Positions 1,107 to 60,205 of a stretch of 64,000 bases of DNA are shown one piece after another; positions within the stretch are counted from its first letter, which is position 1; every line of letters begins with the position of its first letter. The stretch comes from Escherichia coli. GTDB lineage: Bacteria > Pseudomonadota > Gammaproteobacteria > Enterobacterales > Enterobacteriaceae. The notes under the pieces were generated by a model. It saw only the letters and a program-made list of their open reading frames with translations. It made no database searches and had not been told where the DNA came from. Location of the stretch: the NCBI RefSeq assembly GCF_011045215.1, contig NZ_CP049201.1, one strand, 5' to 3'. Position numbers and translations under genes: made by a program.

Positions 1107-1655
1107 TTAATAATAGTTAATATGGAAATTTGTTACCGCATTCACATTACCTGAAGTCGCTTTACCCGTAGCGATATAATGAACTTTAAAAGTCAACGTC
1201 TGATCTCCATCTTGCAACAAAATGTTCCCGGTTTCTGTGTCTGGCTTGATGGCCGTTGTACCATCATTCATATACATTTGCAGGGCCACGTTTGTAGCAG
1301 CATCAGATGAGGCCTGGTTAGCAAACGCTGTAATCTGAGTAGTATCCGCAGTGCCATTAAAGGTGAACGTTGCATTTTTTGTTACGGTAGTATCACAATC
1401 TTTTAATTCAATTGGCACATCAGTTTGCACGCCAGAAACCTGACCATTGGTTTGCAACTTCGTGGCACTAACATCTGGCAAAGTCACCACGGAATCTTTC
1501 GTCGCAGCTACCAGGGTACAAGCTGGAGCAATAACTTTACCATTAAATGTTACTGAGCCATCCGTGATAGCATTATCATCAGCAGCCATAACGCTGGACG
1601 TTGCACATACCACAGTTATAAACGCCGTCAATACACTTTTTTTCATCGTTATCAT
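1107..1655 (-). CDS. elfA: Fimbrial major subunit (true start probably MKKSV at 1646)
   Basis: ORF track 182 aa with signal peptide (..SSVMA/ADD), Cys pair, C-terminal aromatic residues typical of pilins; adjacent to chaperone/usher genes; directly beside ssuE as in K-12. Confidence 0.8.
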   Translation of the reverse strand: MITMKKSVLTAFITVVCATSSVMAADDNAITDGSVTFNGKVIAPACTLVAATKDSVVTLPDVSATKLQTNGQVSGVQTDVPIELKDCDTTVTKNATFTFNGTADTTQITAFANQASSDAATNVALQMYMNDGTTAIKPDTETGNILLQDGDQTLTFKVHYIATGKATSGNVNAVTNFHINYY

Positions 1656-2001
1656 CCTGATCTCTTCGTAAATATGATAATGCCTTTAAATGACATCAGA
1701 CTTAATAATAACAATAATTGTCCGCCATTTAAATCAAGCATACTAAATCCAATAAGTGACAAATCTTTAATTTATAGATTTCATGAATATTTAAATATTA
1801 ATTGAACGAGTAATTCATTGATTCAACATCTAATGACTATCCAATAAATAAATATGCGTGATATATAAAGCCCTTTCTTTAGTTTATTTTCAGAAAAAGA
1901 TACACAAAATTTATATTTGGCATTTTCTTGTCTCTCCGACAGACTGAGCGAATTGTTATCAATGTTAACAAAACAAGAACAATTGGTTATAAGGAGAGAG
2001 T

Positions 2002-2577
2002 ATGCGTGTCATCACCCTGGCGGGTAGTCCTCGCTTTCCTTCTCGCTCCAGCTCCTTGCTGGAATATGCGCGGGAAAAACTAAATGGCCTGGATGTTGAG
2101 GTTTATCACTGGAATCTGCAAAACTTCGCCGCGGAAGATCTGCTTTATGCTCGTTTCGATAGTCCGGCACTCCATACCTTCACCGAACAGTTGCAACAGG
2201 CTGACGGGCTGATTGTCGCCACGCCTGTATATAAAGCCGCCTATTCCGGTGCGCTGAAAACCCTGCTCGACCTGCTGCCAGAACGTGCGTTGCAAGGCAA
2301 AGTGGTGCTACCGCTGGCGACGGGCGGTTCGGTGGCCCATCTGCTGGCGGTCGATTATGCCCTTAAGCCAGTTTTAAGTGCGCTGAAAGCCCAGGAGATC
2401 CTGCACGGCGTGTTTGCCGATGACTCGCAGGTGATTGATTACCATCACAAACCCCAGTTCACGCCGAATTTACAAACCCGTCTTGATACCGCGCTAGAAA
2501 CTTTCTGGCAGGCATTGCACCGCCGCGATGTTCAGGTTCCTGATCTTCATTCTCTGCGAGGTAATGCCCATGCGTAA
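2002..2577 (+). CDS. ssuE: NADPH-dependent FMN reductase of the sulfonate-sulfur utilisation system, 191 aa
   Basis: ORF track 191 aa; first gene of the five-gene ssu operon with overlapping downstream genes; AT-rich promoter region upstream. Confidence 0.93.
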
Positions 2578-10684: not shown

Positions 10685-12085
10685 ATGAGCGTTGTGCCTG
10701 TAGCCGACGTACTCCAGGGCCGCGTAGCCGTTGACAGCGAAGTCACCGTACGCGGATGGGTACGTACCCGCCGAGATTCAAAAGCTGGCATCTCCTTCCT
10801 CGCCGTTTATGACGGTTCCTGCTTTGATCCTGTACAGGCTGTCATCAATAATTCTCTGCCCAATTACAATGAAGACGTCCTGCGTCTGACCACCGGTTGC
10901 TCGGTCATTGTGACGGGTAAAGTCGTGGCATCGCCGGGCCAGGGGCAACAATTTGAAATTCAGGCCAGCAAGGTTGAAGTTGCTGGTTGGGTTGAAGATC
11001 CAGACACTTACCCGATGGCGGCAAAACGCCACAGCATTGAGTATCTGCGTGAAGTCGCTCACCTGCGTCCGCGCACAAACCTGATTGGTGCCGTCGCGCG
11101 CGTTCGTCATACGCTGGCGCAGGCGCTGCATCGCTTCTTTAACGAGCAGGGATTCTTCTGGGTTTCAACGCCACTGATTACCGCATCTGATACCGAAGGT
11201 GCAGGCGAAATGTTCCGCGTTTCTACGCTGGATCTGGAAAACCTGCCGCGTAACGATCAGGGCAAAGTGGATTTCGACAAAGACTTCTTTGGTAAAGAGT
11301 CTTTCCTGACCGTATCTGGCCAGTTGAACGGCGAAACCTACGCTTGCGCATTGTCCAAAATTTATACCTTCGGCCCGACTTTCCGTGCTGAAAACTCCAA
11401 CACCAGCCGTCACCTGGCGGAATTCTGGATGCTGGAGCCGGAAGTGGCGTTTGCTAACCTGAACGATATCGCGGGTCTGGCTGAAGCCATGCTGAAATAT
11501 GTCTTCAAAGCGGTTCTTGAAGAACGCGCAGACGACATGAAATTCTTCGCTGAACGCGTAGATAAAGATGCCGTTTCACGTCTGGAACGCTTCATTGAGG
11601 CCGATTTCGCGCAGGTGGATTATACCGACGCAGTGACCATTCTCGAAAACTGCGGCAGGAAGTTTGAAAACCCGGTTTACTGGGGCGTTGATCTCTCTTC
11701 TGAGCATGAGCGTTATCTGGCGGAAGAACACTTTAAAGCACCGGTAGTGGTTAAAAACTATCCGAAAGATATTAAAGCGTTCTATATGCGCCTTAACGAA
11801 GACGGTAAAACCGTTGCGGCTATGGACGTTCTGGCTCCGGGCATCGGTGAGATCATTGGTGGCTCCCAGCGTGAAGAACGTCTGGACGTGCTGGACGAGC
11901 GTATGCTGGAAATGGGCCTGAATAAAGAAGATTACTGGTGGTATCGCGATCTGCGTCGCTACGGTACTGTTCCGCATTCAGGTTTCGGTCTTGGTTTTGA
12001 ACGTCTGATTGCTTACGTAACTGGTGTGCAAAACGTGCGTGATGTGATTCCGTTCCCACGTACTCCGCGTAACGCCAGCTTCTAA
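10685..12085 (+). CDS. asnS: Asparaginyl-tRNA synthetase, 466 aa (start [12 protein letters not shown])
   Basis: ORF track frame 10640..12085; class II aaRS motifs; length from M16 is 466 aa. Confidence 0.95.
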
Positions 12086-12098
12086 TTTAGCGTCTACA

Positions 12099-12126
12099 AG
12101 AGCCAGCACCCGCTGGCTCTTTTTTA
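12099..12126 (+). terminator. Rho-independent terminator of asnS
   Basis: agagccagcacccgctggctct hairpin plus TTTTTT. Confidence 0.85.
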
Positions 12127-12469
12127 TCCTTTCTGTCAAGTTATCTGTTTGTTAAGTCAATCAATCTATTTGCAACCCCGCCATAACGATCATCCTGTTA
12201 CGGAATATTACATTGCAACATTTACGCACAAAAAATAACCCGCATTCTTATTGCGGATTAGTTTTTTCTTAGCTGATAGCACAATTTTCATACTATTTTT
12301 TGGCATTCTGGATGTCTGAAAGAGGATTTTGTGCCAAGTCGATAAAGTTTCCATCAGAAACAAAATTTCCGTTTAGTTAATTTAAATATAAGGAAATCAT
12401 ATAAATAGATAAAAATTGCTGTAAATATCATCACGCCTCTATGGAAATATGACGGTGTTCACAAAGTTC

Positions 12470-12545
12470 CTTAATTTTTACTTTTAGTTACATATTTTTT
12501 CTTTTTGAGACTAAATCTTTATCTTTGTAGCACTTTCACGGTAGC
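12470..12545 (+). promoter_or_regulatory. ompF promoter-proximal OmpR binding region (F1-F3-like direct repeats)
   Basis: tttacttttagttacatatttt motif and AT-rich repeats about 150-210 bp upstream of ompF ATG; assignment from recalled OmpR site consensus. Confidence 0.55.
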
Positions 12546-12686
12546 GAAACGTTAGTTTGAATGGAAAGATGCCTGCAGACACATAAAGACACCAAACTCT
12601 CATCAATAGTTCCGTAAATTTTTATTGACAGAAATTATTGACGGCAGTGGCAGGTGTCATAAAAAAAACCATGAGGGTAATAAATA

Positions 12687-13775
12687 ATGATGAAGCGCAA
12701 TATTCTGGCAGTGATCGTCCCTGCTCTGTTAGTAGCAGGTACTGCAAACGCTGCAGAAATCTATAACAAAGATGGCAACAAAGTAGATCTGTACGGTAAA
12801 GCTGTCGGTCTGCATTATTTCTCCAAGGGTAACGGTGAAAACAGTTACGGTGGCAATGGCGACATGACCTATGCCCGTCTTGGTTTTAAAGGGGAAACTC
12901 AAATCAATTCCGATCTGACCGGTTATGGTCAGTGGGAATATAACTTCCAGGGTAACAACTCTGAAGGCGCTGACGCTCAAACTGGTAACAAAACGCGTCT
13001 GGCATTCGCGGGTCTTAAATACGCTGACGTTGGTTCTTTCGATTACGGCCGTAACTACGGTGTGGTTTATGATGCACTGGGTTACACCGATATGCTGCCA
13101 GAATTTGGTGGTGATACTGCATACAGCGATGACTTCTTCGTTGGTCGTGTTGGCGGCGTTGCTACCTATCGTAACTCCAACTTCTTTGGTCTGGTTGATG
13201 GCCTGAACTTCGCTGTTCAGTACCTGGGTAAAAACGAGCGTGACACTGCACGCCGTTCTAACGGCGACGGTGTTGGCGGTTCTATCAGCTACGAATACGA
13301 AGGCTTTGGTATCGTTGGTGCTTATGGTGCGGCTGACCGTACCAACCTGCAAGAAGCTCAACTTCTTGGCAACGGTAAAAAAGCTGAACAGTGGGCTACT
13401 GGTCTGAAGTATGATGCGAACAACATCTACCTGGCAGCGAACTACGGTGAAACGCGTAACGCTACGCCGATCACTAATAAATTTACAAACATCAGCGGCT
13501 TCGCCAACAAAACGCAAGACGTTCTGTTAGTTGCGCAATACCAGTTCGATTTCGGTCTGCGTCCGTCCATCGCTTACACCAAATCTAAAGCGAAAGACGT
13601 AGAAGGTATCGGTGATGTTGATCTGGTGAACTACTTTGAAGTGGGCGCAACCTACTACTTCAACAAAAACATGTCCACCTATGTTGACTACATCATCAAC
13701 CAGATCGATTCTGACAACAAACTGGGCGTAGGTTCTGACGACACCGTTGCTGTGGGTATCGTTTACCAGTTCTAA
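12687..13775 (+). CDS. ompF: Outer membrane porin F, 362 aa
   Basis: ORF track 362 aa; signal peptide ..[11 protein letters not shown]-terminal VYQF typical of porins. Confidence 0.96.
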
Positions 13776-43035: not shown

Positions 43036-44796
43036 ATGACGCAAACATTTATCCCCGGCAAAGATGCCGCACTGGAAGATTCCATCGCTCGCTTCCAGCA
43101 AAAACTTTCAGACCTCGGCTTTCAGATTGAAGAGGCCTCCTGGCTGAATCCCGTGCCTAACGTCTGGTCTGTACATATTCGCGACAAAGAGTGCGCACTG
43201 TGTTTTACCAACGGTAAAGGCGCAACCAAGAAAGCGGCGCTGGCTTCTGCACTCGGTGAATATTTCGAGCGTCTCTCAACCAACTACTTTTTTGCTGATT
43301 TCTGGCTGGGCGAAACCATCGCCAACGGTCCATTTGTGCATTATCCCAACGAAAAATGGTTCCCACTGACCGAAAATGACGATGTGCCAGAAGGGCTGCT
43401 CGATGAACGTCTGCGCGCATTTTACGATCCGGAGAATGAATTGACCGGCAGTATGCTGATTGACCTACAATCCGGTAACGAAGATCGTGGTATTTGCGGT
43501 CTGCCGTTTACACGTCAGTCTGATAATCAGACCGTTTATATTCCGATGAATATCATTGGTAACTTGTACGTTTCTAACGGTATGTCTGCTGGCAATACCC
43601 GTAACGAAGCACGCGTTCAGGGGTTGTCCGAAGTTTTCGAACGCTACGTGAAAAACCGCATTATTGCTGAAAGCATCAGCTTGCCGGAAATCCCGGCAGA
43701 CGTGCTGGCACGTTATCCAGCAGTAGTTGAAGCGATCGAAACACTGGAAGCAGAAGGTTTCCCGATCTTCGCATATGATGGTTCCCTTGGCGGCCAGTAT
43801 CCGGTGATTTGCGTGGTACTGTTTAATCCTGCTAACGGCACCTGCTTTGCCTCTTTCGGTGCGCATCCTGATTTTGGCGTAGCACTGGAACGTACCGTGA
43901 CCGAGCTGCTGCAAGGTCGTGGCCTGAAAGATTTGGATGTGTTTACTCCGCCAACCTTCGATGATGAAGAAGTCGCTGAACATACCAACCTCGAAACGCA
44001 CTTTATCGATTCCAGCGGTTTAATCTCCTGGGACCTGTTCAAGCAGGATGCCGATTATCCGTTTGTGGACTGGAATTTCTCCGGCACCACGGGAGAAGAG
44101 TTTGCTACGCTGATGGCTATCTTCAACAAAGAAGATAAAGAAGTTTATATTGCCGATTACGAGCATCTGGGCGTTTATGCTTGCCGTATTATCGTGCCTG
44201 GCATGTCCGATATTTATCCGGCTGAAGATCTGTGGCTCGCGAATAACAGTATGGGCAGCCATTTACGTGAAACGATTCTTTCGCTACCAGGCAGCGAGTG
44301 GGAAAAAGAAGATTACCTGAACCTCATCGAGCAACTGGATGAAGAAGGTTTTGATGACTTTACCCGCGTGCGTGAGCTGTTGGGTCTGGCGACCGGGTCG
44401 GATAACGGTTGGTACACCCTGCGTATCGGTGAATTAAAAGCCATGCTGGCGCTGGCTGGTGGCGATCTGGAACAGGCTCTGGTCTGGACCGAATGGACGA
44501 TGGAGTTTAACTCATCGGTATTCAGCCCGGAACGCGCCAACTATTATCGCTGCCTGCAAACGTTGTTATTACTGGCACAGGAAGAAGATCGCCAGCCGCT
44601 GCAATATCTGAATGCGTTTGTTCGCATGTACGGCGCAGATGCCGTGGAAGCCGCCAGTGCGGCAATGAGCGGCGAAGCGGCGTTTTATGGCTTGCAACCA
44701 GTAGATAGCGATCTGCACGCGTTTGCTGCACATCAGTCACTGTTGAAGGCCTACGAAAAGCTGCAGCGCGCCAAAGCAGCATTCTGGGCAAAATAA
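43036..44796 (+). CDS. ycaO: YcaO-domain protein (ATP-dependent amide-activating family), 586 aa
   Basis: ORF track frame 43003..44796; start at MTQTFIPGKD; length matches recalled YcaO. Confidence 0.92.
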   Translation: MTQTFIPGKDAALEDSIARFQQKLSDLGFQIEEASWLNPVPNVWSVHIRDKECALCFTNGKGATKKAALASALGEYFERLSTNYFFADFWLGETIANGPFVHYPNEKWFPLTENDDVPEGLLDERLRAFYDPENELTGSMLIDLQSGNEDRGICGLPFTRQSDNQTVYIPMNIIGNLYVSNGMSAGNTRNEARVQGLSEVFERYVKNRIIAESISLPEIPADVLARYPAVVEAIETLEAEGFPIFAYDGSLGGQYPVICVVLFNPANGTCFASFGAHPDFGVALERTVTELLQGRGLKDLDVFTPPTFDDEEVAEHTNLETHFIDSSGLISWDLFKQDADYPFVDWNFSGTTGEEFATLMAIFNKEDKEVYIADYEHLGVYACRIIVPGMSDIYPAEDLWLANNSMGSHLRETILSLPGSEWEKEDYLNLIEQLDEEGFDDFTRVRELLGLATGSDNGWYTLRIGELKAMLALAGGDLEQALVWTEWTMEFNSSVFSPERANYYRCLQTLLLLAQEEDRQPLQYLNAFVRMYGADAVEAASAAMSGEAAFYGLQPVDSDLHAFAAHQSLLKAYEKLQRAKAAFWAK

Positions 44797-45127
44797 AATC
44801 AAATAGCCTACGCAATGTAGGCTTAATGATTCGTCTGAGTTATATTACGGGGCGTTTTTTTAATGCCCCGCTTTACATATATTTGCATTAATAAAATAAT
44901 TGTAATTATAAGGTTAAATATCGGTAATTTGTATTTAATAAATACGATCGATATTGTTACTTTATTCGCCTGGTGCTCCCTTTTAATTAACTGTTTTAGC
45001 GGAGGATGCGGAAAAAATTCAACTCATTTGTTAATTTTTAAAATTTATTTTTATTTGGATAATCAAATATTTACTCCGTATTTGCATAAAAACCATGCGA
45101 GTTACGGGCCTATAAGCCAGGCGAGAT

Positions 45128-45141
45128 ATGATCTATATCAA
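45128..45141. promoter_or_regulatory. FNR-type site (aTGAT-N4-ATCAA) in focA-pflB promoter region
   Basis: atgatctatatcaa palindrome read directly, followed by tataat at 45151-45156. Confidence 0.6.
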
Positions 45142-45201
45142 TTTCTCATCTATAATGCTTTGTTAGTATCTCGTCGCCGACTTAATAAAGAGAGAGTTAG
45201 T

Positions 45202-46059
45202 GTGAAAGCTGACAACCCTTTTGATCTTTTACTTCCTGCTGCAATGGCCAAAGTGGCCGAAGAGGCGGGTGTCTATAAAGCAACGAAACATCCGCTTAAG
45301 ACTTTCTATCTGGCGATTACCGCCGGTGTTTTCATCTCAATCGCATTCGTCTTCTATATCACAGCAACCACTGGCACAGGCACAATGCCCTTCGGCATGG
45401 CAAAACTGGTTGGCGGCATTTGTTTCTCTCTGGGGCTGATTCTTTGTGTTGTCTGCGGAGCCGATCTCTTTACTTCCACAGTGTTGATTGTTGTTGCTAA
45501 GGCGAGTGGGCGCATCACCTGGGGTCAGTTGGCTAAAAACTGGCTAAATGTCTATTTTGGCAACCTGGTCGGCGCACTGCTGTTTGTACTTTTAATGTGG
45601 CTTTCCGGCGAGTATATGACCGCAAATGGTCAATGGGGACTAAACGTCCTACAAACCGCCGACCACAAAGTGCACCATACTTTTATTGAGGCCGTCTGCC
45701 TTGGTATCCTGGCAAACCTGATGGTATGTCTGGCAGTATGGATGAGTTATTCTGGCCGCAGCCTGATGGACAAAGCGTTTATCATGGTGCTGCCGGTCGC
45801 GATGTTTGTTGCCAGCGGTTTTGAGCACAGTATCGCAAACATGTTTATGATCCCGATGGGTATTGTAATCCGCGACTTCGCATCTCCGGAATTCTGGACC
45901 GCTGTCGGTTCTGCACCGGAAAATTTTTCTCACCTGACCGTGATGAACTTCATCACTGATAACCTGATTCCGGTTACGATCGGTAATATTATCGGCGGTG
46001 GTTTGTTGGTTGGGTTGACATACTGGGTCATTTACCTGCGTGAAAACGATCACCATTAA
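45202..46059 (+). CDS. focA: Formate channel FocA, 285 aa, GTG start
   Basis: In-frame GTG at 45202 preceded by AAAGAGAGAG; N-terminus (V/M)KADNPFDLLLPAAMAKVAEEAG; the longer track ORF 44863..46059 runs through the AT-rich promoter region. Confidence 0.9.
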   Translation: MKADNPFDLLLPAAMAKVAEEAGVYKATKHPLKTFYLAITAGVFISIAFVFYITATTGTGTMPFGMAKLVGGICFSLGLILCVVCGADLFTSTVLIVVAKASGRITWGQLAKNWLNVYFGNLVGALLFVLLMWLSGEYMTANGQWGLNVLQTADHKVHHTFIEAVCLGILANLMVCLAVWMSYSGRSLMDKAFIMVLPVAMFVASGFEHSIANMFMIPMGIVIRDFASPEFWTAVGSAPENFSHLTVMNFITDNLIPVTIGNIIGGGLLVGLTYWVIYLRENDHH

Positions 46060-46113
46060 TGGTTGTCGAAGTACGCAGTAAATAAAAAATCCACTTAAGA
46101 AGGTAGGTGTTAC

Positions 46114-48396
<2,283 letters not shown>

Positions 48397-58861: not shown

Positions 58862-60205
58862 TTAACGGTAGCGTTTTATGGGGCTATTTTGATCCTGTTC
58901 AGCCAGCCAGGCGAGCTTTTCGCCAATCTTGCCTTCAAGGCCCCTGTTTGACGGGAAATAATAGCGTGTTTGTGCTATTTCCGGCGGGAAGTAAACCTCA
59001 CCGGCAGCATAAGCGTTTGCTTCATCATGAGCGTAACGATATTCCTGCCCATAGCCCATTTCCTTCATTAATTTCGTCGGCGCATTACGCAAATGAACCG
59101 GTACGTCATAATCCGGACGTTCGCGAGCATCGGCCAACGCGGCTTTAAACGCAGTGTAGACAGCGTTACTTTTTGGCGCGCAGGCCAGGTAAACAATCGC
59201 CTGAGCAATGGCGCGTTCACCTTCCGCCGGGCCAACGCGAGTAAAGCAATCCCAGGCTGCAATTGCCACCTGCATCGCTCGTGGATCAGCATTACCCACA
59301 TCTTCAGACGCAATCGCCAGACAGCGACGCGCAACATATAACGGATCGCCACCGGCAGTAATAATTCGCGCATACCAGTACAGCGCCGCATCGGGTGCGC
59401 TACCACGTACCGATTTATGCAGTGCGGAAATGAGATCGTAAAAGCGATCACCTTTGTTATCAAAGCGGGCACTACGTTCACCTGCGATTTCGGTCAGTAA
59501 TTCAGGCTTCAGGACCCGCTTACCGCTATCATCGACTTCGGCCATATCCGCCATCATTTCCAGCGTATTTAACGCCCGGCGCGCGTCGCCATTCACCAGT
59601 TCAGCAATGGCGCGTCGTGTTTCATCTGGCAGAACAATATCCTGACCACCATAGCCACGGGTTTTGTCTTCCATCGCCTGAGTTAGTACTTGCTGAATAT
59701 CCTCTGTACTCAGGGATTTCAACAGATAGACACGGGCACGGGAAAGCAGTGCCGAATTAAGCTCAAACGACGGGTTTTCAGTGGTTGCGCCAATAAAAGT
59801 GATGGTGCCGTCTTCAATATGTGGCAGAAATGCATCCTGCTGGCTTTTGTTGAAACGGTGAACTTCGTCAACAAAAAGAATAGTGCGGCGACCTGCATTG
59901 CGGTTTTGCCGGGCGCGCTCGATCGCCTCGCGAATCTCTTTCACGCCAGAGGTGACGGCAGAAATACGTTCCACATCAGCGTTCGCATAGCGGGCAATCA
60001 CTTCAGCGAGGGTTGTTTTGCCGGTACCCGGTGGCCCCCAGAGGATCATAGAATGTAAATGCCCGGCTTCGATAGCGCGCGGCAACGGCTTCCCCGCAGC
60101 CAGCAAATGTTGCTGGCCGATATACTGTGCTAAATTTTCTGGCCGCATACGCGCGGCCAGAGGTTGAAAAGTATTATCCGAAAAATCGAGCGACAGATTG
60201 CTCAC
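58862..60205 (-). CDS. rarA: Replication-associated recombination protein A (AAA+ ATPase, MgsA/YcaJ), 447 aa
   Basis: ORF track 447 aa; Walker [12 protein letters not shown]. Confidence 0.95.

Follow-up and report, generated by a model that had tools for sequence, protein, structure and literature searches.

The window, by which we mean the whole stretch of E. coli chromosome that was analysed (64 kb), contains ycaO followed by focA, and the finding considered here is the spacer between the two genes, 44797..45201. RefSeq ends ycaO at 44796 and starts focA at 45202, which gives a spacer of 405 bp; these boundaries were checked in two records, those of strain CP53 and K-12 MG1655. The following features were placed in and beside the spacer, with the basis of each in brackets.

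44797..45201, + strand: ycaO-focA intergenic control region (RefSeq boundaries, composition)
44848..44870, + strand: probable ycaO intrinsic terminator hairpin (fold and cross-genus hairpin)
44863..45201, + strand: upstream stretch open in the focA frame, 113 codons from an ATG, non-coding (ORF list)
44872..44900, + strand: candidate distal promoter (P7), TTTACA-17-AATAAT, sigma-70-like (promoter scan)
44889..44942, + strand: ArcA site, four direct repeats (PMC3798270 supplement)
44983..44992, - strand: perfect ArcA-box-like decamer AGTTAATTAA (consensus match)
45001..45005, + strand: upstream Shine-Dalgarno GGAGG of the focA -213 30S site (bioRxiv 10.1101/2025.04.04.647229)
45061..45073, + strand: IHF consensus AATCAAATATTTA (WATCAANNNNTTR) (consensus match)
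45128..45141, no strand assigned: FNR site ATGATCTATATCAA, centre 45134.5 (sequence, published ChIP-seq, conservation)
45151..45156, + strand: TATAAT, -10 of the overlapping proximal promoter with mapped start 45165 (transcription start site of PMC3415461)
45164..45169, + strand: TAGTAT, correctly spaced -10 of the class II FNR promoter (P6), start ~45175/45176 (geometry from the published -40.5)
45187..45196, + strand: AG-rich weak Shine-Dalgarno tract AAAGAGAGAG, 5 nt before the GTG (invariant in 79/79 loci)
45202..46059, + strand: focA coding sequence, GTG start, 285 aa (RefSeq)

Published coordinates were brought onto the window by the relation that a window position x corresponds to 999668 - x in MG1655 U00096.3, with U00096.2 positions 777 lower. 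Of 5,426 complete E. coli genomes, 5,425 were matched by a 601-bp probe over the region, in most cases with an identity of at least 99%; the probe was also found at 5 plasmid places, and one genome held 21 places. Between the spacer and its K-12 MG1655 counterpart there were two SNPs only, at 44832 (C for A) and 44973 (G for A). An earlier note on this DNA, made from the sequence, had described the spacer as strongly AT-rich and about 400 bp long, which is borne out by a GC content of 31.4% versus 51.0% window-wide; equally AT-rich 405-bp segments made up 0.4% of the 64 kb. Other AT-rich islands, with a 405-bp GC content below 36%, occur in the window only at ~1432..2150 and ~12060..12800.

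Conservation was assessed in a scan of species-representative genomes that yielded 80 loci, 79 of them usable, from Escherichia, Salmonella, Citrobacter, Klebsiella, Enterobacter, Kosakonia, Kluyvera, Atlantibacter, Mangrovibacter and other Enterobacteriaceae. The proximal ~100 bp of the region (45104..45204) was ~97% identical over ~75 species and tighter than the flanking coding DNA: identity to the window was 0.97 for the leader (45170..45201), compared with 0.75 for the last 37 nt of ycaO and 0.93 for the first 36 nt of focA. Further upstream, the conserved blocks fall on ArcA-type repeats. Several records stood out in these searches. An enterobacterial focA locus was present in a record labelled Chryseobacterium, and focA-leader fragments were labelled Staphylococcus aureus and Acinetobacter baumannii, all probably from contaminated or mislabelled assemblies. 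The GTDB representative labelled E. coli SCPM-O-B-8794 encodes an identical FocA, yet carries 23 differences in the upstream 450 bp, far above other E. coli.

At the distal end of the spacer, the putative ycaO terminator consists of a 9-bp stem (CGGGGCGUU/AAUGCCCCG) closed by a 5-nt loop. The fold of 44790..44890 had an energy of -31 kcal/mol (z = -4.4), and at the same position other genera have GGGGC...GCCCC followed by a T-run. The promoter scan returned a single hit, TTTACA-17-AATAAT, with 10/12 matches, and this sequence is listed for focA-pflB as a promoter selected by SELEX with the RpoD holoenzyme (PMC3946193). Conservation of its hexamers across genera is low (0.38-0.45), and it shares sequence with the ArcA site, an odd arrangement for an activator. 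An alternative distal -10 candidate is TATATT (44841..44846), which is invariant, immediately precedes the terminator hairpin and is nearer to the distal sigma-70 ChIP peak (~44859) than TTTACA-17-AATAAT is. The 5' edge of the hairpin, TATATTACGGGGC (44841..44853), is near-invariant across genera, while the hairpin loop and 3' flank vary; TATATTACGGGGC could be a -10 element that overlaps the terminator. A distal start near 44994 based on TTTAAT was also considered and discarded, given that the 5' edge of the published 30S footprint is at -213 (44989).

The upstream half of the spacer also carries elements for ArcA. A published ArcA ChIP peak lies at 953,962-967 (U00096.2), and the predicted site there, TAATAAAATAATTGTAATTATAAGGTTAAATATCGGTAATTTGTATTTAATAAA, spans 953,949-954,002 (PMC3798270, Park et al.). 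With TGTTA-type direct repeats at 10-11 bp spacing and published occupancy, the element has the features of an ArcA-regulated region, and its TGTAA, GTTAA and GGTAA repeats are conserved across genera. The ArcA-box consensus used for the scan was [AT]GTTAATTA[AT], which is matched only 3 times across the window; conservation of the block containing AGTTAATTAA was 95.5% among 76 species sequences. IHF acts at pfl, and its consensus was matched only 4 times in the 64-kb window, both strands included, the match at 45061..45073 being moderately conserved. Nine NarL heptamers have been recorded for focA and convert to 44887..45159 of the window; two of them overlap the right FNR half-site and TATAAT.

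Between the ArcA and IHF elements lies the GGAGG motif at 45001..45005. Binding of 30S subunits at this upstream site, with a 5' end at -213, is independent of tRNAi, and mutation of the upstream Shine-Dalgarno sequence cuts focA-lacZ expression about 10-fold (bioRxiv 10.1101/2025.04.04.647229). The predicted anti-Shine-Dalgarno duplex was stronger at GGAGG than at the true start (-9.5 vs -4.9 kcal/mol). A Shine-Dalgarno core of at least 4 nt was found in 55/77 species loci, with exact GGAGG in 32/77 and weaker variants in 23 more. The element is thus a strong, distant Shine-Dalgarno-like motif with no functional start codon, as expected of an upstream ribosome-binding site. An ATG at 45006 abuts GGAGG and opens an 11-codon ORF, MRKKFNSFVNF (45006..45041). 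This uORF was rejected on its zero Shine-Dalgarno spacing, its being out of frame with focA and the lack of conservation of the ATG elsewhere. Rfam covariance models gave no match at E <= 1 on either strand of 44500..46300.

The earlier note had also reported an FNR-type palindrome at 45128..45141. The sequence there, ATGATCTATATCAA, departs from TTGAT-N4-ATCAA at one position. In the window, 43 FNR-like sites had two mismatches or fewer, versus 32.9 expected, and 6 had at most one mismatch; the chance of a site with at most one mismatch in 405 bp of the spacer's composition was P ~0.034. Since the FNR motif alone is not statistically exceptional, the reality of the site rests on experiment and conservation. 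FNR ChIP, which the earlier note had proposed as a check, is available from published work: a ChIP-seq peak at 953,741/953,746 (U00096.2) converts to ~45150/45145 of the window (PMC3688515, Myers et al.), about 10-15 bp from ATGATCTATATCAA. The same study predicts an FNR site TTGATATAGATCAT at 953,750, the reverse complement of the window site, lists the focA-pflB operon as directly activated by FNR, and places the top-scoring focA-pflB site at -40.5 from a known transcription start site (PMC3688515 Table 1). The operon is also among FNR ChIP-chip targets (PMC1802558). Across 76 species sequences, half-site identity was 1.0 and 0.995 versus 0.865 for the central N4, which occurs as CTAT, CTAC, CCAT, CGAT or CTGA. 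In the 79 usable loci the site lies 67.5-69.5 bp before the GTG, its half-sites constant and its central four bases variable. The motif, its position near -41.5, the constraint on its half-sites and published occupancy and activation are together those of a class II FNR-dependent promoter, the occupancy and FNR-dependent expression being literature data. FNR-like sites with up to 3 mismatches number five in the spacer. No convincing second FNR site was found there, every candidate having 3 mismatches, and none of the candidates lies at -41.5 from either distal start candidate. Elsewhere in the window, FNR-like sites with at most one mismatch occur at 419, 2435, 9515, 51373 and 57411, and a 2-mismatch site at 58889..58902 falls within ~40 bp of a published dmsA FNR ChIP peak after conversion.

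As the FNR site is centred at 45134.5 and its published position is -40.5, the FNR-activated transcript should start at ~45175, which makes TAGTAT, at -11 to -6, the -10 element. The earlier note had read the FNR site as followed by a TATAAT hexamer. This hexamer is present at 45151..45156, but it is ill placed to be the -10 of the FNR promoter, because it lies 13 bp too near the FNR site for a class II arrangement, whereas TAGTAT fits the published -40.5. The FNR-activated -10 is TAGTAT, with its start at ~45175 taken from the published relative position, and TATAAT belongs to an overlapping promoter. Both hexamers are conserved, with identities to the window of 1.0 for TAGTAT and 0.998 for TATAAT. 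In cells grown in M9 glucose, with no anaerobic condition described, a start was mapped at minus-strand position 953,726, window position 45165, with a 5'UTR of 37 nt (PMC3415461, Kim et al.), while the Mendoza-Vargas supplement gives only the internal pflBp5 for the operon. Two published sigma-70 ChIP peaks, each higher under anaerobic conditions, fall at ~45196 and ~44859 of the window. Counted from the 45165 start, the FNR site is centred on -30.5, a position from which bound FNR would be expected to occlude the TATAAT promoter. The second promoter, named P6A, is reportedly repressed by FNR according to Kaiser and Sawers (1997).

A simpler reading would make the FNR site and TATAAT a single promoter, with an FNR-activated start at ~45163-45165. 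TATAAT is a perfect and invariant -10, and the 45165 start is experimentally mapped; this reading, however, puts the FNR centre at -30.5, within the -35/spacer region. Among FNR-activated promoters with known starts, 19/23 have their site at -41.5 +/- 4 and another has it at -60.5 (PMC3688515). The published -40.5 for focA demands a start near 45175, and the 45165 start comes from a study that describes no anaerobic growth, so that we consider a single promoter improbable. More sweeping is the proposal that the AT-rich tract is H-NS-silenced or bent spacer DNA in which most motif matches are due to chance. Published H-NS ChIP regions, at ~44234-44916 and ~45038-45720 of the window, do overlap both spacer ends, and AT-rich DNA yields many weak matches, the five FNR-like sites above being an example. 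The near-invariant blocks in 76 species nevertheless coincide with FNR, ArcA and -10 elements, conservation in the proximal 100 bp exceeds that of the adjoining coding DNA, and ChIP data are available for FNR, ArcA and sigma-70. This makes a chance origin for most of the motifs highly improbable. Two overlapping proximal promoters within a control region used by several factors remain the preferred reading.

The position of the focA start was examined in the same way. GTG 45202 is preceded by AAAGAGAGAGTTAGT, and the GTG together with AAGAGAGAGTTAGT before it is present in 79/79 species loci. FocA is 100% identical to PDB 3KCU over residues 1-285. Toeprinting of 30S subunits at the GUG start requires tRNAi, and mutation of the Shine-Dalgarno sequence in the start region abolishes expression (bioRxiv 10.1101/2025.04.04.647229); focA is also counted among genes with a gtGTG start that lack a Shine-Dalgarno sequence of at least 4 nt (PMC9841429). 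The claim of a GTG start at 45202 behind an AG-rich ribosome-binding site thus agrees with RefSeq, the 30S toeprint and the conservation, with the qualification that the ribosome-binding site is weak (-4.9 kcal/mol). The start context is GTGTGA (45200..45205), in which an out-of-frame GTG at 45200, followed by TGA, overlaps the real GTG at 45202.

Upstream of this start, the focA frame was said to stay open for a further 339 bp to 44863. It does, and it remains open beyond that point, for 363 nt in all, to a TGA at 44836..44838; 44863 is the first ATG, from which the extended ORF (44863..46059) would encode 398 aa. Of the stop codons in the spacer, 4 fall in the focA frame, every one of them before 44839, compared with 12-13 in the other + frames. 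Could FocA therefore begin upstream in this strain, at ATG 44863 or TTG 45028, with an N-terminal extension? In favour of this, an open frame of 363 nt is rare by chance (P ~1.5e-4 in dinucleotide shuffles, 1.4e-3 with the conserved core fixed), and a few database calls begin at TTG 45028. Codon 44971..44973, on the other hand, is TGG in the window and TGA in K-12, so the G at 44973 removes the in-frame stop of K-12 and lengthens the open frame. With an exact 61-nt probe against E. coli records, the TGA allele was found in 3,440/5,424 (at least 63%) and the TGG allele of the window in 495/5,424. In other genera the open length is 12-258 nt (median 120 nt), as expected once the invariant core is fixed. 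ATG 44863 sits within the 3' arm of the ycaO terminator hairpin and has no Shine-Dalgarno sequence, the proximal transcription starts (45165, 45175) lie downstream of all upstream in-frame start codons, and the 30S toeprint falls at the annotated GUG. Vibrio FocA aligns from residue 3, so a long N-terminal extension is not expected. The 113-residue extension, encoded at 31% GC, had 11 matches among 5.8 billion proteins searched, none of them a full-length homologue; of the four extension-bearing proteins retrieved, all were short fragments, one carried a frameshift and two bore foreign species labels. An upstream start for FocA is accordingly extremely unlikely, and the upstream open stretch is a non-coding, allele-specific accident whose openness is conserved neither between strains nor between genera. 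The earlier note had warned that this stretch could mislead automated callers into an over-long FocA: the extension does exist, but RefSeq uses the GTG in the records checked, and only the 11 proteins mentioned carry any part of it.

Two parts of the region drew attention for their conservation. A GC-rich block directly before the FNR site (45104..45127, ACGGGCCTATAAGCCAGGCGAGAT) is highly conserved amid the AT-rich spacer and contains the imperfect palindrome GGCCTATAAGCC. No factor was found assigned to this block or to the 27-37-nt leader. The second is the invariant TATATTAC (44841..44848), which adjoins the ycaO terminator. It is conceivable, though we think it unlikely, that the proximal ~100 bp holds an extra, undescribed control layer, either an RNA element acting on the weak GUG start or another protein site on the upstream side of the FNR site, and, separately, that TATATTAC marks a distal promoter overlapping the ycaO terminator.

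Taken together, our analysis indicates that 44797..45201 is very probably the control region of the E. coli focA-pflB operon, with several promoters and several regulatory factors. In our model, FNR bound to ATGAT-N4-ATCAA in anaerobiosis would activate the class II promoter with -10 TAGTAT and a start at ~45175, and the overlapping TATAAT promoter, with its start at 45165, would be occluded when FNR is bound. The ArcA repeats (44889..44942 and 44983..44992), the IHF site and the NarL heptamers would contribute further control by redox state and nitrate. From a distal promoter immediately beyond the ycaO terminator would come a long AT-rich 5'UTR, on which the decoy-like GGAGG may capture 30S subunits and boost initiation at the weak start region. 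FocA itself would be translated from GTG 45202, which the weak AG-rich tract precedes.

The region is already known and has long been studied as oxygen-responsive; nothing new was found in it, and the account given in the earlier note is correct apart from the points amended above. The region governs the switch of pyruvate flux to formate in E. coli during anaerobiosis and is a textbook case of combined control by FNR, ArcA, IHF and NarL. For a genome scan its value is that of a clean negative, a real feature all of which is explained by existing work. In practical terms, the FNR-dependent -10 should be read as TAGTAT, not TATAAT, and the long upstream frame as an allele-specific accident that annotation pipelines already handle.

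The closest known system is the focA-pflB (pfl) region of E. coli K-12, whose promoters we take to be the P6, P6A and P7 of Sawers and co-workers. Common to both are the FNR site, the two -10 hexamers, the GTG start and the motifs for ArcA, IHF and NarL, and the sole SNP with an effect here is the G at 44973. Like the class II FNR promoters of dmsA, narG and yfiD, the region has a TTGAT-N4-ATCAA-type site ~41 bp before the start, a poor -35 overlapped by that site, occupancy by FNR in vivo and sigma-70 occupancy that increases in anaerobiosis. It differs from them in having, 13 bp further upstream, a second -10 that is perfect and serves an overlapping promoter, and in its co-regulation from far upstream by ArcA and IHF. 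The GGAGG element resembles standby-like 30S sites, such as those found by 30S-seq and that of tisB, in being a strong Shine-Dalgarno sequence ~200 nt upstream with no usable start codon nearby, which binds 30S subunits and raises expression; unlike sites of the 30S-seq/tisB type, the focA site works only on the long distal transcript.
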